Source: an uncultured Gemmatimonadaceae bacterium (lineage in GTDB: Bacteria > Gemmatimonadota > Gemmatimonadetes > Gemmatimonadales > GWC2-71-9). Taken from it: a stretch of DNA of 64,000 nt. The notes beneath the pieces were generated by a model that ran no database searches, was not told the origin of the DNA, and worked only from the letters and a program-made list of their open reading frames with translations. Positions 2,254 to 50,932 of this stretch are shown in pieces. How positions within the stretch are numbered: the first letter of the stretch is position 1; every line of letters starts with the position of its first letter. The position numbers were made by a program, and so were the translations under genes. The DNA lies in contig CAZXKN010000116.1 of NCBI GenBank assembly GCA_964641815.1, forward strand, positions 1,889-65,888, read 5' to 3'.

Positions 2254-3284
2254 AGGCGCTCCAGGACGGCCGCGGCAGCGGCCCTGGTCGAGGTGGTCCC
2301 GCCCAAGTCCTGTGTGCGGACTCCGGCGGCGAGGGCTTGCTGGACGGCGCGCTCGATCGCGCGCGCGGCGTCCTCGTGGCCGAGGCGCTCGAGCATGAGG
2401 GCGCCGGTGAGAATGGCGGCCACGGGATTCGCGACTCCTTTGCCGGCGAGCGGCGGGGCCGAGCCGTGCACCGGCTCGAACAGTCCCGGCCGGCCGGGAT
2501 GGAGGTTGGCGCTGGCCGCGAGGCCGAGTCCGCCCACCAGTCCCGCGCCCAGGTCCGAGAGAATGTCGCCGTAGAGGTTGTTGGTGACGATCACCTGGAA
2601 GCGGCCGGGGTCACGCACCATCTCGAGTGCGAGGGCGTCGACGAAGCGATGCTCCGCGGTGATGCCGGAGTACTCCGCCGCGATGACCTTGAAGCGTTCC
2701 TGCCAGATGCGGTGGGCGGGGACGGCGTTCGACTTGTCGCTCATCGTGACCCGCGTTTTCCCGTGGGTGCGTGCCCATTCGAAGGCCGCGCGGATGATGC
2801 GGTCGACGCCCTGTGCCGTGTTGATCTCCTCGGCGATGTACTCCTCGCCCGAGATCCGCCCTCTCCCGAGGTAGACTCCCTCGGTGTTCTCCCGGAAGAT
2901 CACGAAATCGATCTCCTGCGCCGCCCGGAGCGGTGTCAGATCCGGGTGCAGCAGCTGCACCGGCCGGAAGTTGATGTAGAGATCGAGCCGGAATCGCAGG
3001 CCGAGCAGAATGTCTCGAGCGTGCTCGTTGCCGGGGACGCGCGGGTCGCCGATCGCGCCGAGGAAGATGGCGTCGACGTCATCGCGCAAATGATTGAAGG
3101 CAGGATCGGGGAGGGTCTCGCCCGTCTTGAGGTAATGGTCAGCGGAGTAGGGGAGGCGCTCCCACCGGATCGAGGCGTCGTGTGCGGCGGCTGCCTGCTC
3201 GATCACTGGGATCGCCGCGTCGATCACTTCGGGACCGATCCCGTCGCCGGCGATGACGGCGACGCGGTGGGCAACAGGCGTCAT
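2250..3284 (-). CDS. isopropylmalate/tartrate dehydrogenase family oxidoreductase (LeuB/TtuC-like)
   Basis: 344 aa with N-terminal RVAVIAGDGIGPEV, NNLYGDILSDLGAGLVGGLG and FEPVHGSAP, typical of the isocitrate/isopropylmalate dehydrogenase family. Confidence 0.85.
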   Translation of the reverse strand: MTPVAHRVAVIAGDGIGPEVIDAAIPVIEQAAAAHDASIRWERLPYSADHYLKTGETLPDPAFNHLRDDVDAIFLGAIGDPRVPGNEHARDILLGLRFRLDLYINFRPVQLLHPDLTPLRAAQEIDFVIFRENTEGVYLGRGRISGEEYIAEEINTAQGVDRIIRAAFEWARTHGKTRVTMSDKSNAVPAHRIWQERFKVIAAEYSGITAEHRFVDALALEMVRDPGRFQVIVTNNLYGDILSDLGAGLVGGLGLAASANLHPGRPGLFEPVHGSAPPLAGKGVANPVAAILTGALMLERLGHEDAARAIERAVQQALAAGVRTQDLGGTTSTRAAAAAVLERL

Positions 3285-3286
3285 CG

Positions 3287-3350
3287 GTCGTCGGTCATCG
3301 GTCGATGTCCCGGTGCAGTAACCGATGACCGATTACCGAAAACCGACGAC
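3287..3350 (-). repeat. unit-built imperfect hairpin H1 (heptamer TCRTCGG / CCGAnnA arms)
   Basis: The array tcatcgg tcgtcgg tcatcgg tcgatgt spans 3281-3308, with ccgatga ccgatta ccgaaaa ccgacga at 3322-3349 on the other side. GTCGTCGGT (3287-3295) pairs with ACCGACGAC (3342-3350). CATCGGT (3296-3302) pairs with ACCGATG (3321-3327). The element lies between the stop of 3357..4091 and the ATG (3284) of the next gene. Confidence 0.7.
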
Positions 3351-3356
3351 GCTGCG

Positions 3357-4091
3357 TCACTCGAACCCCGTCGCTCTCCCGCATCCGATGCAGTACGCCC
3401 ACCCGACGTCCACCTCGCTGCCGCACGCGGGGCACTTCAGCTCCCCCGAAGGCGGCTGGCCGCAATGCGGGCAGAAATTGACCTTGCGGTTCGCGGGCAC
3501 CGAGCCGCCACAATAGGGACACTGCCGCGGCGGCACCGCCTCTTCCGCGTCAGCCAGCTCGAACGCCGGGGCATTCGGCTCGAACTCCGGCGCATCGGCG
3601 ACATCGGCTCGCTCGAGGTCAGTGAACATCACCGGGGGGATCGGGTTTTCCGACGTCCAGCTGACCGGCTCGTCTTCCTCCTCTTCCGCGACCAGCTCCG
3701 GCTCCTCCCGGTCCCGCACCGGCTGCGGCGGGGCATAGCCCGCCATGTCGCCGCGCAACACCCGCTCGGCGGCGAAGCGATTGATCATCACGCGGGCGTC
3801 GGGGAAGTTGCGGAAGAACGAGGTGTCCGGGTTCGTCGCCGTGACTTCCTGCTGCATCCCCTCACGGACGTCGGGGGGATCGAGCTGCACCAGACCGCGC
3901 TCCCCCGCGAGCAGCCGCAGTACCGTCATCTCGTAGTCCTGGTGCGTGGCCACTTTCAGCCGCGACCGGTTGGAGCGATAGGGGACGAGCCGCTCGTACA
4001 GGTCGGCGGCGGGGAAGGGGAGAGCGAGCCGCGCGTCGCGCGACAGGGCTTCGACGAGGCACTCGAAGAGCCGGTCCAGCTCGTCGCTCAT
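3357..4091 (-). CDS. hypothetical protein with acidic linker and C-terminal double zinc ribbon
   Basis: 244 aa. C-terminus is CPYCGGSVPANRKVNFCPHCG...KCPACGSEVDVGWAYCIGCG (four CxxC pairs). The central stretch is Glu/Pro-rich. No enzyme motif recognised. Confidence 0.7.
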   Translation of the reverse strand: MSDELDRLFECLVEALSRDARLALPFPAADLYERLVPYRSNRSRLKVATHQDYEMTVLRLLAGERGLVQLDPPDVREGMQQEVTATNPDTSFFRNFPDARVMINRFAAERVLRGDMAGYAPPQPVRDREEPELVAEEEEDEPVSWTSENPIPPVMFTDLERADVADAPEFEPNAPAFELADAEEAVPPRQCPYCGGSVPANRKVNFCPHCGQPPSGELKCPACGSEVDVGWAYCIGCGRATGFE

Positions 4092-4114
4092 GGGACGACA
4101 ACCACACCCTTCAT
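4088..4114 (-). CDS. candidate 8-codon upstream ORF (MKGVVVVP*) translationally coupled to 3357..4091
   Basis: Sequence is ATG AAG GGT GTG GTT GTC GTC CCA TGA. A strong SD GGGGGAGAGG (reverse complement of 4119-4128) sits 4 nt upstream of the ATG. Its TGA overlaps the ATG of the next gene (ATGA). The peptide repeats the C-terminus of the upstream gene. Confidence 0.4.
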   Translation of the reverse strand: MKGVVVVP

Positions 4115-4137
4115 TGTACCTCTCCCCCTGTCCACCC

Positions 4138-5193
4138 TCACTTCACTACCACCACGCCCTTCATGAACGGGTGTGGCGTACAGTGGTAGGTGAAGGTACC
4201 TGCGTGATCGAAGCGGTGCACGAAGGACGTGTTCGGATTGATCAATTGCGAGCCCTGTTCTCCACTGTCGAACGTGACGGTGTGTCCGAGGGGATCGATG
4301 TTGTTCCAGCGGACTGCCTGCCCCACGGAAATGACCACGGTATCGGTCGGGAACTTCATGGCTCCGATGGTGACGGTCGCGCCGAGCGGTGCGTTGACAT
4401 CTCCTACCACCCTCGCCGATCCGCCACCGTGGAACCAGGGAGCGAAGCGACGCAGATGAATGGGGATGGTGAACTCGAACCCGTAGAGACGTTGCGAGCT
4501 GCCGATGGAATTCCCCTGAATCGTGCTCGCCGTCACGTTGGAGACCTCGAACGCGAAGGTGTGAGGCGAATTGGGGATCTGCACCTGGATTCCGGCACTC
4601 CACGCCGCCCGGACCGTGGGGCTGACGAACGAGCCCACGTCGGCTGAGACTGCGAAGTACTGCGACAACCGGGCGACGGCGCCGCCGGCAAACGCGGCGC
4701 GCCCCTTGGCAACCCCGAGTGCCTTCGACGCGTACCGGGCCGCGCCCTCGAGGGTGAGCGCGCCCACGGTATAGTCGACGCCGAGCTCTCCATCGGCGCT
4801 CTTGGCGAGCAGGCTGTAGGCCGGGGTTACCGCGACGTGCAGACCCGTGCTCCCTTCAGGGCCGCCGTATGCCCGCCAGCGCGCGAACAGCTCCGTCTCG
4901 TTGGTCGAGGTGGCGCCACGTCCCAGACCGACCAGGGACTTTGTCGCGAACCAGGTCCCGATCGCGACCCGGTGTGTGATGCCGGTCGAGAGCGTAAACG
5001 TCGGCGAATTCACGACGAAGTGGCCGCTCGAGGACGTCGCGGGAGAGACGTAGAAGCGATGTAGAAAATTGAACTGCACGACGTTGGGCTCCGCCACCCA
5101 GGTCCCCGCGAGGTTGGGGGACCGATACAGCAGCGATTGGGCCGAAAGTGGAGCGGCAAGACCCAATACGGTACTGACGACGATGAGGCGCAT
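4138..5193 (-). CDS. secreted protein: N-terminal beta-rich domain of unknown function fused to a C-terminal cupredoxin (plastocyanin/azurin-like) domain
   Basis: Trimmed to MRLIVVSTVLGLAAPLSAQ (signal peptide); the track starts at a TTG at 5235. The C-terminal ~100 aa carries type-1 copper ligand spacing: GHTVTF...YHCTPHPFMKG (His, Cys, His, Met). The N-terminal ~250 aa has an alternating beta-strand-like pattern. Confidence 0.8.
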   Translation of the reverse strand: MRLIVVSTVLGLAAPLSAQSLLYRSPNLAGTWVAEPNVVQFNFLHRFYVSPATSSSGHFVVNSPTFTLSTGITHRVAIGTWFATKSLVGLGRGATSTNETELFARWRAYGGPEGSTGLHVAVTPAYSLLAKSADGELGVDYTVGALTLEGAARYASKALGVAKGRAAFAGGAVARLSQYFAVSADVGSFVSPTVRAAWSAGIQVQIPNSPHTFAFEVSNVTASTIQGNSIGSSQRLYGFEFTIPIHLRRFAPWFHGGGSARVVGDVNAPLGATVTIGAMKFPTDTVVISVGQAVRWNNIDPLGHTVTFDSGEQGSQLINPNTSFVHRFDHAGTFTYHCTPHPFMKGVVVVK

Positions 5194-8398: not shown

Positions 8399-8414
8399 GG
8401 ATCGGGAAATATGG

Positions 8415-8490
8415 AGGAGACGGTAGGAGACGGTAAGAGACGGTAAGGGATGCTACCCCTACCGTCTCTTACCGCCTCTTGCCGTCCCCT
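8415..8490 (-). repeat. unit-built hairpin H2 (decamer GAGACGGTAR arms)
   Basis: 8415-8449 (gagacggtag gagacggtaa gagacggtaa ggg) pairs with 8456-8490 (ccctaccgtctc ttaccgcctc ttgccgtccc c...). That is 35 positions with 5 mismatches and a 6-nt loop. It lies between the stop of 8495..9283 and the selD start. Confidence 0.8.
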
Positions 8491-8494
8491 ACCG

Positions 8495-9283
8495 TCAGGC
8501 TTCTTGCGCGACCAGTAGCGATCTGAGCCCGATCAGCGCACGCTCTTCGTTCGCCGGCTCGTCGAAGCTGCCATCCTCCCGCTGCATCGCCAACAGCGCG
8601 GGCACGGCGTTGGAGATCAGCTCCCGCGCCGGCCGGATCCCGGCGAGCAGCAGGGACTCGAGCATGTGGAACAGGTTCGCGTCGCCCCACGTTCCGTCGG
8701 GACGCTGGCTCTCGCCGAGACGCTCGACGCACGCCGGGAGCCGGTCATGGTACGGGACCGGCGCCACCGCCACGACGCCGAGGGCGCTGGCGGCGAGCTC
8801 GTTGTGCACGCTGGGCCAGAGACTTAAGACCCGCTCGAGGCGGCGCAACACTCGCGGCCGGGCATCCTGGCGCGCTCGGAGCAGCACGCGCAACCCGAGG
8901 CACTCCGCGGCGAACGTCGCCCCTTCCGCGCTCGTGAGCACGGTCCCGTTGGGCAGGGCGAGCGGCGACGGCGCCGACAGCGCGGGCGGCATCTCGAGGA
9001 ACGTCAGCACCCAGGCCACGAGCCGCGCCAGGCTGCCCTGCAACGCGTCGAGTCCCAGGTCCATCATCTCCCATGCGGCCCAGGCCGTGGTGACCAATGA
9101 CCCGCCGATCGAGCCGTCCATCTTCGTCTTGGCGCGCCGCTCGCTGACGAGCACCTGTGTGAGCTGCTCGTCCTCCGGGCGGGGGATCCCCAACAGTCGG
9201 CGGCCCAAGACACCTTGGCGCGAATCGAGGACCGAAAAGAAATTCTCCAGGCGTGTGATCGCCTGCTCCAGCGAGGTCGACAT
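8495..9283 (-). CDS. prenyltransferase/terpenoid-cyclase-repeat-like (alpha/alpha toroid) protein, function unknown
   Basis: 262 aa. Repeated motifs of the prenyltransferase/squalene-oxidase repeat type: DGSIGGSLVTTAWAAW, QRPDGTWGD, QREDGSF. Confidence 0.6.
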   Translation of the reverse strand: MSTSLEQAITRLENFFSVLDSRQGVLGRRLLGIPRPEDEQLTQVLVSERRAKTKMDGSIGGSLVTTAWAAWEMMDLGLDALQGSLARLVAWVLTFLEMPPALSAPSPLALPNGTVLTSAEGATFAAECLGLRVLLRARQDARPRVLRRLERVLSLWPSVHNELAASALGVVAVAPVPYHDRLPACVERLGESQRPDGTWGDANLFHMLESLLLAGIRPARELISNAVPALLAMQREDGSFDEPANEERALIGLRSLLVAQEA

Positions 9284-27138: not shown

Positions 27139-28266
27139 ATGCGAGAACGACTTGGGTACGCAGCGCTCTTGGTGATCGCCTGCAGCGGCGGTAAGTCGGC
27201 CGCCAGCCAGGAGCCGCCTGCCGGGATGGTGCCGCAACAAATCGCCGGGCACACGTTGTTTCTGCGCACCGGATTCAAGATCAACGTCTTCGCGGACCTC
27301 GGTGGGGTGCGCAACCTGGTGCTGGGACCTGGGGGCGCGGTCTACGCGGCGTTGCAGGGTCCCGGCCGAGTGGTCCGGCTCGCCCACGCCTCGGGAGACA
27401 GCACGGCCGGCGCCACCGAGGACGTCGCCACCGGGCTGAACGGTCCATTCGGGATCGCCTTCCGTGGCGACACGATGTACGTCGGCGAGCAGACTCGCGT
27501 GACGCGATTTGCTCCCGGGAGCACCGCCGGTCAGGCGATCGTTTCCGGGCTGCCCTCGGGCGGCCACAGCACCCGGACGGTCGTGTTCGGTCCGGACGGC
27601 CTGATGTACGTCGCGGTCGGATCTTCGTGCAACATTTGCGACGAGTCCGACCCGCGCCGCGCGGCGGTCACCCGTTTCAACCCAGACGGGTCGGGGGAGC
27701 ACCGCTTCGCGACAGGACTGCGCAACTCGGTGGGACTCGCCTTCAACCCGTCGACCAGTGAGCTGTGGGCGACGAACAACGACCGCGACAACATCGGCGG
27801 CTCGAATACCGCGATGACGGACGACCTGCCCCCCGAGCATCTCAACATCCTCAAGGACGGCAAGTTCTACGGCTGGCCGAAGTGCTATCTGCCAGGCAAG
27901 CCGAACCCTGAATACGCGAGCGCCGACTGCTCCACGGTCGAGCCTCCCGCGATCACCTTCCAGGCGCACTCGGCCCCGCTCGGCATCACGTTCTATACCG
28001 GTTCGGCGTTCCCCGGCTACAAGGGTGATGCGTTCCTCACGTATCACGGCTCGTGGAACCGCAGGGTCCCCACCGGCGCGAAGGTCGTGCACGTGAAGGT
28101 GGAGAGTGGCAAGCCGGTCTCGATCGAAGACTTCGTCACCGGCTGGCAGCTGCCCGACGGCTCGCGCTGGGGCCGTCCCGTAGCGGTGCTCGCGCTGCCC
28201 GATGGGTCGCTCCTGATTTCGGATGATCAGGGCGGGAAGATCTGGCGGGTGACGTATGGGAAGTAA
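27139..28266 (+). CDS. PQQ-dependent sugar (glucose/sorbosone) dehydrogenase-family beta-propeller
   Basis: 375 aa with a lipoprotein-like N-terminus (LLVIACSGG). Contains HSTRTVVFGPDGLMYVAVGSSCN and the DDLPPEHLN... pattern typical of soluble aldose/sorbosone dehydrogenases. Confidence 0.8.
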   Translation: MRERLGYAALLVIACSGGKSAASQEPPAGMVPQQIAGHTLFLRTGFKINVFADLGGVRNLVLGPGGAVYAALQGPGRVVRLAHASGDSTAGATEDVATGLNGPFGIAFRGDTMYVGEQTRVTRFAPGSTAGQAIVSGLPSGGHSTRTVVFGPDGLMYVAVGSSCNICDESDPRRAAVTRFNPDGSGEHRFATGLRNSVGLAFNPSTSELWATNNDRDNIGGSNTAMTDDLPPEHLNILKDGKFYGWPKCYLPGKPNPEYASADCSTVEPPAITFQAHSAPLGITFYTGSAFPGYKGDAFLTYHGSWNRRVPTGAKVVHVKVESGKPVSIEDFVTGWQLPDGSRWGRPVAVLALPDGSLLISDDQGGKIWRVTYGK

Positions 28267-28395
28267 GGGCGGACGAGGGCGGACGAAGGCGGGAGAGGTC
28301 TACGTCGTGATGGGGATGGGAATCGCTCTGGTCGGGGCTACGTGGGGGTTTTCCCTCTACCGCCCTCTACCGACTTCGTCCGCCTTCTCCCGCCC
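28267..28395 (+). repeat. unit-built hairpin H3 (decamer GGGCGGACGA arms) enclosing the start of the next gene
   Basis: 28267-28299 pairs with 28363-28395 (33 positions, 5 mismatches, 1 G-U). The left arm starts 1 nt after the upstream TAA. GGGAGAGG (28291-28298) lies in the left arm. GTG 28307, ATG 28310 and ATG 28316 lie in the 63-nt loop. Confidence 0.8.
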
Positions 28396-29074
28396 GGACA
28401 TCCACTCGGAGTACGTCAAGTATCTCTCGGGTAAGGACACCCTTACCGCCTATCTGGCCTATCCCGAGCGGCGCGATCCGGCCCCGGCGGTGATCGTGAT
28501 TCACGACATCTACGGCATGGGCGACCGGCTGCGGCCGGCGGTCGAGCTCCTGGCGCAGCGGGGATTCGTGGCGATCGGGCCGGACCTCCTGTCGCGTGCG
28601 GGCGGCACGCCGGCCACGTCCGACTCCGCACGACGGCTGATCTCGGGTCTCGATCCCGACGCCGTCACGCGCGATCTCGATGCGACCTACGCCTATCTCC
28701 GGACGATCAAGGCGGTGCGGGGCGATCACATCGGGGTCATCGGGTTCTGCTGGGGCGGGAGCCAGAGCTTCCGGTACGCCACGAACAATCCGAATCTCAA
28801 GGCGTTCGTCGTCTGCTACGGCTCGGCGCCCGATACTATGGCGCTGGCGCGGATCAAGACAAAGGGACTCGGTGTGTACGCGGAGAACGACGCGCGCATC
28901 GGCGCCGGGCTGCCGGGCCTGGACACGGCGGTCAAACGCCTGCGGCTCGACTACCAGTACCGCGTGTACCCGGGCGTCGGCCACGCTTTCCTCCAGACGC
29001 GTGAAAAGCCCGATGTGGCGGACACGGCGTGGGCCGCGATCGAGGGGTTTTTCCGATCCCAGCTCGGCCGCTGA
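28310..29074 (+). CDS. dienelactone hydrolase family protein
   Basis: AYLAYPERRDPAPAVIVIHDIYGMGD, nucleophile-elbow context IGVIGFCWGG, C-terminal YPGVGHAF. The start is uncertain (GTG 28307, ATG 28310 or ATG 28316). The track start at 28256 overlaps the upstream gene and the hairpin arm. Confidence 0.8.
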   Translation: MGMGIALVGATWGFSLYRPLPTSSAFSRPDIHSEYVKYLSGKDTLTAYLAYPERRDPAPAVIVIHDIYGMGDRLRPAVELLAQRGFVAIGPDLLSRAGGTPATSDSARRLISGLDPDAVTRDLDATYAYLRTIKAVRGDHIGVIGFCWGGSQSFRYATNNPNLKAFVVCYGSAPDTMALARIKTKGLGVYAENDARIGAGLPGLDTAVKRLRLDYQYRVYPGVGHAFLQTREKPDVADTAWAAIEGFFRSQLGR

Positions 29075-33904: not shown

Positions 33905-34477
33905 ATGGCGCTCGACTTCCGCAGGCTCTGGCAGCAGGCGACACCCTACCACGAATTCGTCCGGGATGCGGCCGCAAACCGTGAGCTGTGGGCCTCGATG
34001 GAGCGGATCGCGCAGATTCCCGAGTGGGCGATCGCGGCGGTCCGGACCTCGGGAGAGAAGTTCAACTTCCTGGTGATCGCCGAAGACTGGTGCGGGGATG
34101 GGACGAGCACGATCCCCTATCTTGCCAAGCTCGCGACGATCACCCGCTGTATCGAAGTCCGGGTGCTGCGACGCGATGAGCACCCGGAAGCGATGGATCG
34201 CTATCTCACCGACGGGGCGCGCGCAATTCCGATCGTGATCGTCTTGAACCGGCATCTCGAGGAGCTGGGCCATTGGGGTCCACGCCCCGCAGACCTGCAG
34301 GAGTGGGTGCGCAGCGAGCGAGCGAAAACCGGAGTGAAGCCGCCCTACCCGCAGATCCGGCGCTGGTATGCGCGGGACAAGGGGATCGCGACGCTGCGGG
34401 AGGTGTTGGAGCTGTTCGCGAAGAAGCCGTCAGCTGTCAGCCCTCAGCCGTTAGCTGTTTCGGCAATGACTGGCTGA
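33905..34477 (+). CDS. thioredoxin-fold family protein (single-Cys WCGD motif)
   Basis: Trimmed to MALDFRRLWQQATPYHEF. Contains FLVIAEDWCGDGTSTIPYL and AIPIVIVL. The last ~16 codons (KKPSAVSPQPLAVSAMTG) are encoded by hairpin H4. Confidence 0.7.
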   Translation: MALDFRRLWQQATPYHEFVRDAAANRELWASMERIAQIPEWAIAAVRTSGEKFNFLVIAEDWCGDGTSTIPYLAKLATITRCIEVRVLRRDEHPEAMDRYLTDGARAIPIVIVLNRHLEELGHWGPRPADLQEWVRSERAKTGVKPPYPQIRRWYARDKGIATLREVLELFAKKPSAVSPQPLAVSAMTG

Positions 34478-34492
34478 TAGCTGACAGCTGAC
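34429..34492. repeat. unit-built hairpin H4 (heptamer GTCAGCT / AGCTGAC arms) between convergent genes
   Basis: 34429-34449 pairs with 34472-34492 (21 bp, 2 mismatches) with a 22-nt loop. The plus-strand stop (34475-34477) lies inside the right arm. The minus-strand stop (34498) is 6 nt beyond. Confidence 0.8.
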
Positions 34493-34497
34493 AGCAG

Positions 34498-43193: not shown

Positions 43194-43214
43194 GCGAAAG
43201 ATTGTGAAAGTGGC

Positions 43215-43287
43215 GGAGGTTGGTGGAAGATGGTGGAGGCAACATCGAGCTACGTCCACCATCCTTCACCATCCTCCGCCAACCTCC
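43215..43287. repeat. unit-built hairpin H5 (decamer GGTGGARGWT arms) between convergent genes
   Basis: 43215-43239 pairs with 43263-43287 (25 positions: 1 mismatch, 2 G-U) with a 23-nt loop. It fills the gap between stops at 43193 (+) and 43299 (-). Confidence 0.8.
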
Positions 43288-48436: not shown

Positions 48437-50845
48437 ATGCGCGATGTCCCGAATTACGATCCAGCCGCAATCGAAGCGGCGTGGCAGGCACGCTGGGCGG
48501 AGCGCCGCACCAACGAGCCCGACCTCGACCGTCCCGCGCGGCCGTTCTACAACCTGATGATGTTCCCCTACCCGTCGGCCGAGGGCCTGCACGTGGGGAA
48601 CATGTTTGCGTTCACGGGGGCCGACATTCACGGCCGCTTCCAGCGCCTCCGAGGCAATACCGTGTTCGAGCCGATCGGCTACGACGCGTTCGGAATCCAT
48701 TCCGAGAACTACGCGCTGTCGCGAGGGATCAACCCCGCGAAACTCATTCCGGAGAACATCGCCACCTTCCGCCGGCAGCTGCACCGCATGGGCGGGATGT
48801 TCGATTGGCGCCACGAGCTGTCCACCACCGACCCCGGCTACTACCGCTGGACGCAGTGGCTCTTCCTGCAGCTCTTCAAGGCGGGGCTCGCGTATCGCAA
48901 GCGGGCGGCGGTGAACTGGTGCCCCAAGGACAAGACCGTGCTCGCCAACGAGCAGGTCATCAACGGCCACTGCGAGCGCTGCGGCACGGCGGTGGAGCAG
49001 CGCTCGCTCGATCAGTGGTTCTTCCGCATCACCGACTACGCGGGCCGCCTGCTCGACAACCTCGACCGGCTCGACTGGTCGGAGTCGACGGTCGCCCTGC
49101 AGCGCAACTGGATCGGCCGCAGTGAAGGCGCCGAGCTCGTGTTCCGGACGCCGGCGGGGCAGGGGATCACGGTGTTCACGACGCGCCCCGACACGGTATT
49201 CGGCGCGACCTACCTGGTCCTCGCCCCCGAGCACCCCTTCGTCGACGAGCTCACCGCTGCCGAGCAGCGCCCGGCGGTACGCGCCTACCAGCGCGAGGTC
49301 CAGAGCCGCGACGTCGTCGCGCGCCGCGTCGGCGAGAAGAAGAAGACCGGCGTGTTCCTCGGTAGCTATGCGAAGAATCCCGCCACCGACGAAGCGATCC
49401 CGATCTGGATCGCCGACTACGTGCTGATGGAGTACGGCACCGGCGCCATCATGGCGGTGCCGGGACACGACACCCGCGACCACGAATTCGCGACGCAATT
49501 CAAATTGCCGATTCGCGAGGTGGTGCGGGTGGAGGGCGAGCAGCTCCCCGTCATCTCCGAGGAGGGCGTGCTCGTCAATTCGAAACAATTCGACGGCCTC
49601 GGGTGTCGCGAGGGCGCGCGCCGTATCGTCGCCTGGCTCGCCGAGCGCGGCGTAGGCTCGAGCAAGGTGCAGTACCGTCTGCACGACTGGTGCATCTCGC
49701 GGCAGCGCTATTGGGGTCCGCCGATCCCGATCATCTATTGTGACGCCTGCGGTCCAGTGGCGGTACCCGAACAGGATCTTCCGGTCGAGCTGCCGCTCAT
49801 CGAGGACTTCCGCCCCGACGATTCCGGCATCTCACCGCTGGCGCGGCACACCGAGTGGTACAACGTGCCGTGCCCGTCGTGCGGCAAGGCGGGGCGCCGT
49901 GAGACCGACGTCTCCGATACGTTCCTCGATTCGTCGTGGTATTACCTGCGCTACCCGTCGACCGAGTTCTCCGACCGGCCGTTCGACCCGGCGCGTACCA
50001 AAACGTGGCTCCCGGTCACGACCTACATCGGCGGCAACGAACACGCCGTGTTGCACCTCTTGTATTCGCGCTTCATCACGATGGTGCTCAAGGATTTCGG
50101 GCACGTCGAGTTCGAGGAGCCGTTCCCCAAGCTGCGGGCGCACGGGTTGATCGTGAAGGACGGCTCCAAGATGTCGAAGTCGCGCGGCAACGTCGTCGTC
50201 CCCGACGCCTACATCCAGCAGTGGGGCGCCGACACGTTCCGGATGTATCTGATGTTCCTGGGACCGTTCCAGGAGGGCGGCGACTTCCGCGACACCGGGA
50301 TCACGGGGATCCGGCGCTTTCTCGAGAAGGTGTGGGTGCTCGCCCACGAAGCGACGGCCGGGCCCGACCGGGCGGCGCCGCCCGAAGTCGTCACCAAGCT
50401 GCATCAGACGATTCGCAAGGTGACGGCGGACACCGGCGCACTCGATTACAACACCGCGATCGCGGCGATGATGGAGTACATCAATCTCGTGCGCGAGCGC
50501 GACGCGGGGAGCCGCGAAGCCCTGCGGCCGCTCGTGTTGCTGTTGTCGCCCTACGCTCCGCATCTCGCCGAGGAGCTCTGGATCCTGCTCGGCGGTTCGG
50601 GGCGCAGCGTGTTCGACGAGCGCTGGCCGGAGTACGTCGAGCGGCTCGCCGTCGCAGGCGAAGTCGAAATCGCCATCCAGGTCAACGGCAAGCTGCGCGG
50701 ACGCCTGCAGCTGCCGCGCGGCGCGTCGCAGGACGACGTGGTGACGCGTGCCCTGAAGGAGGAAGGCGTCAAGAAGTTCGTGAATGGGAGCAAGGTGAAA
50801 AAGGTGATTTACGTGCAGGATCGGCTGGTGAACCTGGTAGTGTGA
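48437..50845 (+). CDS. leuS: leucyl-tRNA synthetase
   Basis: 802 aa with a class-I HIGH-type motif (PSAEGLHVGN), KMSKSRGN, and a CP1 editing domain with a zinc-knuckle-like CERCG. Confidence 0.97.
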   Translation: MRDVPNYDPAAIEAAWQARWAERRTNEPDLDRPARPFYNLMMFPYPSAEGLHVGNMFAFTGADIHGRFQRLRGNTVFEPIGYDAFGIHSENYALSRGINPAKLIPENIATFRRQLHRMGGMFDWRHELSTTDPGYYRWTQWLFLQLFKAGLAYRKRAAVNWCPKDKTVLANEQVINGHCERCGTAVEQRSLDQWFFRITDYAGRLLDNLDRLDWSESTVALQRNWIGRSEGAELVFRTPAGQGITVFTTRPDTVFGATYLVLAPEHPFVDELTAAEQRPAVRAYQREVQSRDVVARRVGEKKKTGVFLGSYAKNPATDEAIPIWIADYVLMEYGTGAIMAVPGHDTRDHEFATQFKLPIREVVRVEGEQLPVISEEGVLVNSKQFDGLGCREGARRIVAWLAERGVGSSKVQYRLHDWCISRQRYWGPPIPIIYCDACGPVAVPEQDLPVELPLIEDFRPDDSGISPLARHTEWYNVPCPSCGKAGRRETDVSDTFLDSSWYYLRYPSTEFSDRPFDPARTKTWLPVTTYIGGNEHAVLHLLYSRFITMVLKDFGHVEFEEPFPKLRAHGLIVKDGSKMSKSRGNVVVPDAYIQQWGADTFRMYLMFLGPFQEGGDFRDTGITGIRRFLEKVWVLAHEATAGPDRAAPPEVVTKLHQTIRKVTADTGALDYNTAIAAMMEYINLVRERDAGSREALRPLVLLLSPYAPHLAEELWILLGGSGRSVFDERWPEYVERLAVAGEVEIAIQVNGKLRGRLQLPRGASQDDVVTRALKEEGVKKFVNGSKVKKVIYVQDRLVNLVV

Positions 50846-50932
50846 ATGCAGAATGCAGAATGCAGAATGTCGAATGCAGAATTCTCCGGTCAGGAATTCT
50901 GCATTCTGCATTCATCATTCTGCATTCGCATC
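50844..50932. repeat. unit-built hairpin H6 (heptamer GAATGCA / TGCATTC arms) spanning stop codon to stop codon
   Basis: The left arm has 5 GAATGCA-type units plus GAATTC (50844-50884), the loop is tccggtcag, and the right arm is GAATTC plus 4 TGCATTC-type units. 50851-50884 pairs with 50894-50927 (34 positions: 3 mismatches, 1 G-U). The element abuts the leuS TGA (50843-45) and the minus-strand stop (50931-33). Confidence 0.85.

Follow-up and report, generated by a model that had tools for sequence, protein, structure and literature searches.

The 64,000-nucleotide (nt) stretch of DNA analysed here (the window; contig CAZXKN010000116.1 of the uncultured Gemmatimonadaceae bacterium assembly GCA_964641815.1) carries on its minus strand a gene for a cupredoxin-fusion protein followed by a gene for a double-zinc-ribbon protein. 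The end of the cupredoxin gene is present twice at the junction of the two genes. Copy 1 (ATGAAGGGCGTGGTGGTAGTGAAGTGA, in codons ATG AAG GGC GTG GTG GTA GTG AAG TGA, 4164-4138) is the functional end of the gene and begins at the methionine of the conserved HCTPHPFM motif, which we take to be the axial copper ligand from what is generally known of cupredoxins. Copy 2 (ATGAAGGGTGTGGTTGTCGTCCCATGA, in codons ATG AAG GGT GTG GTT GTC GTC CCA TGA, 4114-4088) lies beyond a short spacer and forms an eight-codon open reading frame (ORF) of its own, the mini-ORF, whose stop TGA (4090-4088) overlaps the zinc-ribbon start ATG (4091-4089) as ATGA. Comparisons with related genomes firmly point to the mini-ORF as a relic of a duplicated, overlapped cupredoxin/zinc-ribbon junction. 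The best explanation of origin and function together is that this relic was co-opted as an adaptor for translational coupling, to which we assign a probability of roughly 0.6.

The sequence statements of a first-pass annotation of this DNA (the two copies, the 23-nt gap between them, the ATGA overlap and the Shine-Dalgarno (SD) sequence) all check out, and a short ORF with its own SD, ending ATGA-coupled on an SD-poor start, is present as described there. The G-run that forms this SD stands 4 nt from the mini-ORF ATG, or 7 nt when measured from its GGAG core. The first-pass annotation missed that the GTG at 4141-4139 is in frame, making the mini-ORF the last eight codons of a 17-codon ORF that bridges the two genes. 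The zinc-ribbon ATG at 4091 is the first start codon after an in-frame stop, and this start, together with the N-terminal sequence MSDELDRL, is conserved in every orthologue locus.

When the 140 nt beyond the gene end were shuffled, 1 of 20,000 trials produced a copy with 17 or more of 21 bases matching. Repeats of this quality are not rare over the window as a whole (21 in 64 kb). A chance repeat is ruled out by the shuffles together with the homologous copies in relatives.

Origin from an overlapped gene junction

Approximately 190 orthologous Gemmatimonadales loci (80 from genomes, 80 from metagenomes and 31 obtained through exact-protein look-ups) were compared with the window. Four further protein look-ups (P0011, P0017, P0025 and P0004) gave no additional mini-ORF haplotypes. 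In the closest relative (L081, 97% identity), the cupredoxin stop directly overlaps the zinc-ribbon start by 4 nt (AATGA/AGTGA). The same direct overlap is found in L002, L004, L006, L083, L084, L165-169, L173, L187 and L189-191, as well as in distant members with 55-75% identity (L061, L074, L076, L080 and L090). Two copies of the gene end, separated by a spacer, are present in the window, L001, L161-164, L003/L082, L005, L175-185 and L171/172. The stop of copy 1 runs on into the opening bases of the zinc-ribbon gene, giving TGAGCG in L005/L175-179, TGAGC in L003, and TGAG in the window, L171 and L007. Thus, the duplicated unit was ~30 nt long and came from an overlapped junction. In addition, copy 2 of L001 and of L003 is nearly identical to the native gene ends of their nearest relatives without an insert, L081 and L004.

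The spacers of the window, L161, L001, L003, L005, L175-179, L014, L011 and L013 align as one homologous element that has been variously deleted. The window has the largest deletion, with only the right terminal repeat left; the only strong SD in the gap, as the first-pass annotation called it, is therefore the end of a decayed palindrome. Distances at four-fold degenerate sites of the zinc-ribbon gene separate four clades (0.30-0.45 apart), and members with and without the insert coexist in three of them. Clades 1-3 have an identical loss of the first hairpin of the element (hairpin 1), which favours one old origin. In more distant element-bearing lineages, the downstream copy is either decayed (L013/L088, L014/L016 and L017/L093) or absent (L009, L011, L012, L089 and L091).

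A recent duplication in place was rejected: most haplotypes have 5-8 mismatches between the copies over 24 positions (L003 has 3), and the left half of the spacer has diverged at the neutral rate across clades. Gene conversion is an unlikely cause of the similarity of the copies, as the differences within haplotypes are consistent; one example is GGC in copy 1 vs. GGT in copy 2, found in the window, L161, L005 and L175-179.

In the ancestor of these Gemmatimonadales, the cupredoxin stop overlapped the zinc-ribbon start by 4 nt (…ATG AAR GGN GTN GTN GTN GTN AAR TGA, with an A/GTG A start), which is the standard arrangement for termination-reinitiation coupling. A segment of ~30 nt, which began at the conserved Met codon and reached 3-4 nt beyond the zinc-ribbon start, was then duplicated, with the palindromic element between the copies. 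The upstream copy remained the working end of the cupredoxin gene, and the downstream copy remained with the zinc-ribbon gene as the mini-ORF. In the window, a later deletion took the element except for its right terminal repeat. The duplication may have arisen by either of two routes: a plain 30-nt tandem duplication would keep all frames and provide a viable intermediate, and the alternative is the insertion of an element bearing terminal inverted repeats (TIRs) with a long target duplication.

The trees of the cupredoxin and zinc-ribbon genes are incongruent for L081, L169 and L084 when compared with the window, L001, L004 and L007. L081 combines a clade-1 zinc-ribbon gene with a clade-2-type cupredoxin gene, and L169 combines a clade-4 zinc-ribbon gene with a clade-1-type cupredoxin gene. 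The four-fold divergence between types is 0.5-0.7 for cupredoxin vs. 0.3-0.45 for the zinc-ribbon gene. The incongruence therefore places recombination breakpoints at the gene junction. Either recombination between the repeated gene ends or slippage between them can restore the state without an insert.

Evidence on a proposed role in translational coupling

Intergenic gaps of ~20 nt nearly abolish termination-reinitiation coupling in reporter work (PMC10666635). With the spacer in place, the original coupling would therefore be lost unless some new ORF stopped on the zinc-ribbon start, and delivery of ribosomes by a short ORF is a recognised mechanism (PMC12548453). In the proposed mechanism, the right terminal repeat supplies an SD-like G-run in front of a former internal Met codon, which would make the eight-codon ORF translatable. 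A ribosome would end on the UGA at 4090-4088 and reinitiate at the overlapping AUG at 4091, as it would formerly have done off the full-length cupredoxin gene. In addition, ribosomes that have finished the cupredoxin gene may restart at the GUG at 4141 and so enter the frame of the mini-ORF. On this view, translation of the ORF and the position of its stop would count, and the encoded peptide would not.

All nine mini-ORF haplotypes, which are spread over the four clades, keep the start codon (eight ATG and one GTG), the eight codons and the -4 overlap. Neutral simulation, which ignored indels and is biased by the way in which the loci were classed, gave a probability of 0.06 that all keep the start and of 0.03 that all keep the start and acquire no stop. 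Substitutions in the nine haplotypes were counted on a tree from neutral sites, with 1.06 changes per four-fold site. Relative to this neutral rate, the left spacer evolves at 1.24x, the hairpin at 0.48x, the G-run/SD with the following TACA at 0.42x, codons 1-5 at 0.56x and codons 6-8 at 1.35x. The block of SD, start and codons 1-5 has 13 changes vs. 26.6 expected (P=0.003). A slow SD and slow codons 1-5 next to neutral codons 6-8 are what one would expect if initiation is important and the product is not.

The strength of the predicted pairing with the anti-SD is complementary among the types of junction. At the mini-ORF start it reaches -9.4 kcal/mol in the window and -7.4 to -9.4 kcal/mol across the nine haplotypes. 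At the zinc-ribbon start behind a mini-ORF it is -5.1 in the window (range -5.1 to -7.9, class median -5.7), and the median of the direct-overlap class is -6.2. In most element-bearing loci that lost the mini-ORF, the zinc-ribbon gene has an SD of -9.5 to -12.4. The exceptions are L170/L188 and L007, in which the ATG is lost and the zinc-ribbon SD is only -2.8, and short in-frame ORFs still end on the ATGA. Taken together, translation of the mini-ORF is probably under selection, with modest support, and we infer a coupling function from these sequence comparisons. The coupling role that the first-pass annotation had suggested is thus favoured by the comparative data, whereas the data lend no support to its further suggestion that the peptide or a codon-level RNA feature is selected.

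L007 and L170 are close relatives whose spacers (L007 2965-3005, L170 715-760) are 1 nt apart in length. In L170 a single ORF of 13 codons leads from the ATGA of the cupredoxin gene to that of the zinc-ribbon gene. In L007 there are two short ORFs that overlap, MREGRG and then, via GTGA, VSLVSGT (the second read by eye), of which the latter ends on the zinc-ribbon ATGA. Such stop-to-start relays across the spacer are found in eight of the nine mini-ORF haplotypes as well as in L170 and L007 (L007 by eye). The relays were rejected as evidence of selection, as 64-88% of shuffled spacers contain one and the product over six haplotypes is 0.13.

Several observations weigh against a present coupling role. 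The test of intactness is biased by ascertainment, as decayed copies were classed apart, and the relays are expected from base composition alone. As the hairpin belongs to the slow-evolving block, structure rather than translation may be what is constrained (for example a terminator or an mRNA-stabilising hairpin); the window has lost this hairpin. In L171 the SD lies inside the outer stem of the element. Copy 2 has the same weak GGTG-type SD as the overlap state, from which a degree of independent initiation might arise. Junction recombination can also re-seed copy 2 from functional gene ends and so mimic conservation. Finally, the closest relatives do without the mini-ORF and several lineages have lost it, showing that it is dispensable in the long term.

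The rival that survives best takes the mini-ORF as a neutral remnant without a present role, the zinc-ribbon gene being translated alone through weak GGTG motifs, standby binding or SD-independent initiation. The ORF would be intact merely because it is short, GC-rich and not very old; the probability of no in-frame stop under neutrality is 0.53. The mini-ORF as a whole has 0.88 changes per site vs. 1.06 at neutral sites, and without L001 and L003 its changes fall evenly on the codon positions (4/5/4), both consistent with a neutral remnant. So are the absence of the mini-ORF from the closest relatives, its decay or deletion in L007, L013, L014, L016, L017 and L088, and the relays, which composition explains. 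However, a neutral remnant would keep its start in nine of nine haplotypes with a probability of only ~0.06, and it does not account for a block from the SD to codon 5 that, flanked by neutrally evolving sequence, changes only about half as fast as neutral sites. Nor does it account for the strong zinc-ribbon SD in most loci without the mini-ORF. We regard a pure relic as less likely than co-option for coupling, though as the likeliest of the rivals.

A coupling adaptor may also be placed in a wider scheme. A hairpin element would have invaded a 4-nt overlap; the duplication of the junction would have kept the upstream protein and re-created reinitiation through a Met codon fed by the element, and this adaptor would have been selected. 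The junction would then be a natural bicistronic-design cassette made of host coding sequence and an example of a general route by which overlapping genes tolerate insertions. We put this wider scheme forward tentatively, at somewhat less than even odds.

The palindromic element

The complete element of L014 is G/C-rich and has perfect 15-nt TIRs, GTACCTCTCCCCCTG and CAGGGGGAGAGGTAC, around two hairpins; it folds with -94.6 kcal/mol (z=-6.0). The TIRs are 12 nt long in L011, L013 and L171, and only the right one is kept in the window. The flanking direct repeats of ~30 nt (the 27-nt gene end plus GCG) are diverged, with 3-8 differences in 24 nt. Element-bearing metagenome-assembled genomes include DATICZ01 (L014), CAZQWQ01 (L011) and DATLVL01 (L001). 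No further copies of the element were found in the 64-kb window or in 729 kb of relatives' loci, where the hairpin motif occurs at this junction only. These sequences thus give no sign of a dispersed, multi-copy family of the kind formed by repetitive extragenic palindromic (REP) sequences, miniature inverted-repeat transposable elements (MITEs) or mycobacterial interspersed repetitive units (MIRUs). An Rfam scan of the relatives' element (both strands of L014 2284-2388) gave only matches below the gathering threshold, to hairpin models of microRNA precursors.

The element of L171/L172 (L171 1375-1500) is inverted relative to those of L011, L013 and L014, with an alignment score of 71 for the reverse complement vs. 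39.5 for the same orientation. Either an in-place inversion between the terminal repeats or an independent insertion would give this orientation. The left terminal repeat of L171 is triplicated (GGCCTCACCCCT three times).

The junction could also be the footprint of a mobile element, that is, of a MITE- or REP-like palindrome inserted perhaps more than once, with the copies of the gene end as its target-site duplication and any effect on translation incidental. Perfect TIRs around internal hairpins, the flanking direct repeats, the inverted orientation in L171, and alleles with and without the insert side by side in three of the four clades all fit an insertion. However, the loci searched hold no second copy, and a duplication of ~30 nt is unusually long, far above the usual length of a transposase target-site duplication. 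The loss of hairpin 1 common to clades 1-3 indicates one origin rather than repeated insertion, and the other, unrelated palindromes of the window, built of locus-specific tandem motifs, suggest that palindromes are generated locally. We consider a mobile-element footprint improbable.

The peptide and its codons

The first-pass annotation read the window's two copies as a duplicate with synonymous differences only, which pointed to selection on MKGVVVV(P) or its codons. This holds for codons 1-7, whose four differences all fall on third positions of four-fold degenerate codons, and the chance figure given for them, 5/5985, is arithmetically right. The comparison omitted codon 8 (AAG vs. CCA), where all three bases differ and K is replaced by P. 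Moreover, the null model of neutral decay behind 5/5985 is wrong, as one of the copies is a functional gene end that accepts only synonymous changes. The C-termini of the cupredoxin orthologues follow the pattern M[KRTQ]G[VAT][VI][VI]V[KRQ] before the stop in all loci. Among the nine haplotypes, changes at codon positions 1, 2 and 3 number 0, 1 and 13 in the functional copy and 5, 5 and 11 in the mini-ORF. Copy 1 is under strong purifying selection, and the mini-ORF has changed about ten times faster at positions 1 and 2 combined (10 changes vs. 1). Of the four synonymous differences in the window, only GTT is specific to its mini-ORF; the other three are old and common to clade 1 (GGC/GGT is not seen in L001). 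Thus, the same peptide in different codons is, on this comparison, a product of common descent by duplication and of purifying selection on the functional copy.

The peptide of the mini-ORF lacks conservation among orthologues. Eight peptides are found in the nine haplotypes (MKGVVVVP, MNGVVVVK, MKGVVVVT, VKGVVVVK, MKGVVAAK, MKGVVVAQ, MKGVVIAK and MKREVVGK), with residues never seen in functional ends (P8, T8, N2, A6, A7, R3, E4 and G7). Related genomes lack the mini-ORF altogether (L081, L002, L004, L006 and others), a finding that the first-pass annotation had named as contrary to its proposal, and the start is lost or the ORF decayed in L007/L170/L188, L013, L014, L016 and L017. The RNA structure of the window junction is no better than that of shuffles (z=+0.47), and consensus scans of the gap found no terminator or promoter. 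A codon-level RNA feature in the window was rejected on this z-score. An attenuator or a sequence-dependent leader was likewise rejected, in view of the same score, the lack of a conserved peptide and codons 6-8 at 1.35x the neutral rate.

Selection on the peptide or its codons, as a regulatory nascent peptide, attenuator or micropeptide, would explain why the first seven residues in the window repeat the cupredoxin C-terminus with synonymous differences only, and why third positions are in excess over all nine haplotypes, but it is very improbable given the variety of peptides, the neutral codons 6-8, the absence of an alternative RNA structure in the window, Rfam matches to generic hairpins only and in the relatives' element only, and an excess that vanishes without L001 and L003, whose copies mirror their neighbours' native ends.

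Features of the locus and other junctions

The features of the junction are collected in Table 1. The cupredoxin-fusion protein has a signal-peptide-like N-terminus, followed by ~270 residues without a Pfam match and a C-terminal plastocyanin/azurin-type domain. Homologues of the zinc-ribbon protein number 1502, and those with a named source are labelled Gemmatimonadales or Gemmatimonadota. In many more distant relatives, the cupredoxin gene is absent between the dCMP-deaminase gene and the zinc-ribbon gene, which are directly adjacent.

Table 1. Features of the cupredoxin/zinc-ribbon junction in the window
Feature	Position	Strand	Basis or remark
Cupredoxin-fusion gene	4138..5193	minus	Pfam PF00127 at residues 273-351, E=3.9e-11
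Copy 1, last 8 codons and stop of the cupredoxin gene (MKGVVVVK)	4138..4164	minus	Functional gene end
GTG pseudo-start, overlapping the cupredoxin stop as GTGA	4139..4141	minus	Copy of the old zinc-ribbon start, duplicated with the gene end
23-nt spacer GGGTGGACAGGGGGAGAGGTACA	4115..4137	minus	Remnant of the ~105-nt palindromic element
Right terminal inverted repeat GGACAGGGGGAGAGGTAC, within the spacer	4116-4133	minus	Alignment with relatives' elements
SD-like G-run GGGGGAGAGG, then TACA	4119-4128	minus	Predicted anti-SD pairing -9.4 kcal/mol
Copy 2, mini-ORF (MKGVVVVP)	4088..4114	minus	Original in-place gene end, detached
17-codon bridging ORF VRVDRGRGTMKGVVVVP	4088..4141	minus	Begins in the GTGA at the cupredoxin stop and ends in the ATGA at the zinc-ribbon start
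Double-zinc-ribbon protein gene, 244 aa	3357..4091	minus	Pfam PF12773, E=7.5e-9

The junction between the zinc-ribbon gene and the following Iso_dh gene (window 3281-3360, minus strand) is a possible second case of an overlap split by a spacer. The two genes overlap by 4 nt in L161, L081, L004, L009 and L011. In the window, as in L001, L007, L170 and L015, they are separated by a 72-nt spacer consisting of a CGGTNAT heptamer palindrome with xTGACGC on both sides. An unbroken relay crosses this spacer, from GTG 3360 through 21 codons to an ATGA, then through MTDDR (3298-3281) to a second ATGA at the Iso_dh ATG 3284; among shuffled spacers, a relay of this kind appears in only 13%.

Further long intergenic palindromes lie at 8415-8496, 28259-28403, 34426-34495, 43211-43287 and 50841-50930 of the window. 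Their arms are tandem arrays of a short, locus-specific motif (such as GAGACGGTA, GAATGCA or GTCAGCC) mirrored by its complement. Two of the palindromes separate convergent gene ends, and one, which has no ORF relay, separates co-directional genes. The idea that intergenic palindromes of the window generally carry relays was rejected, as none is present at 8399-8494 and two of the palindromes stand between convergent genes. Junction spacers of the relatives are built in the same style (arrays of GGGGGAA, GTCAGCC, CTATCGG and GGATTGC). The heptamer-array hairpins look like a lineage-wide class and are reminiscent of the STRR repeats of cyanobacteria.

Comparison with known systems

Termination-reinitiation coupling at 4-nt ATGA/GTGA overlaps has been described by Huber et al. 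2019 (PMC6728339) and Huber et al. 2023 (PMC10666635). Both the ancestral junction and the present one at the mini-ORF have such a -4 overlap and an SD-poor downstream start. However, the upstream gene of the present junction is only eight codons long (17 from GTG 4141) and is a detached copy of a gene end, and coupling at it is deduced from sequence.

Short upstream ORFs that deliver ribosomes are reviewed in PMC12548453, and synthetic bicistronic design (BCD) is described in PMC5995908 and PMC6302717. As in BCD cassettes, a short SD-driven leader ORF has a stop that overlaps the start of the gene of interest, and its product would be irrelevant. Unlike BCD cassettes and short upstream ORFs, the mini-ORF lies inside an operon rather than in a 5' leader and is derived from the duplicated end of a coding gene. 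BCD leader ORFs carry an embedded second SD, whereas the mini-ORF has none.

As far as MIRUs are described in the summary of Supply et al. 1997 given in PMC12548453, they are repeat-like insertions at a start codon inside an operon, tolerated through a small ORF coupled at -4, and in this they resemble the present junction. By the same summary, MIRUs are dispersed, multi-copy and hold the ORF within the repeat; the element here is confined to a single locus as far as found, the ORF comes from the host gene and only the SD comes from the element. With the hairpins of REP sequences and bacterial interspersed mosaic elements (BIMEs), and with MITEs, the element shares a G/C-rich palindrome with TIRs between the genes of an operon, and the window has other intergenic palindromes, some between convergent gene ends. 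It differs from them in that it was found at this junction only in the sequences searched, each palindrome of the window has its own motif and the flanking duplication of ~30 nt is atypical.

Implications

The flanking proteins have no known role and the closest relatives manage without the mini-ORF, which limits the stakes. The intermediates in related genomes show how an overlapping, coupled gene pair was split by an insertion without the loss of either gene: the junction was duplicated, and the leftover gene end can serve as an ORF for handing ribosomes on. If reporters confirm the coupling, the junction would be nature's equivalent of the engineered bicistronic-design cassettes, and it would parallel MIRU insertions independently. 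It would then also caution annotators that apparently conserved micro-ORFs beside genes can be relics of duplication, and that synonymous-only divergence between such copies is uninformative on the peptide.

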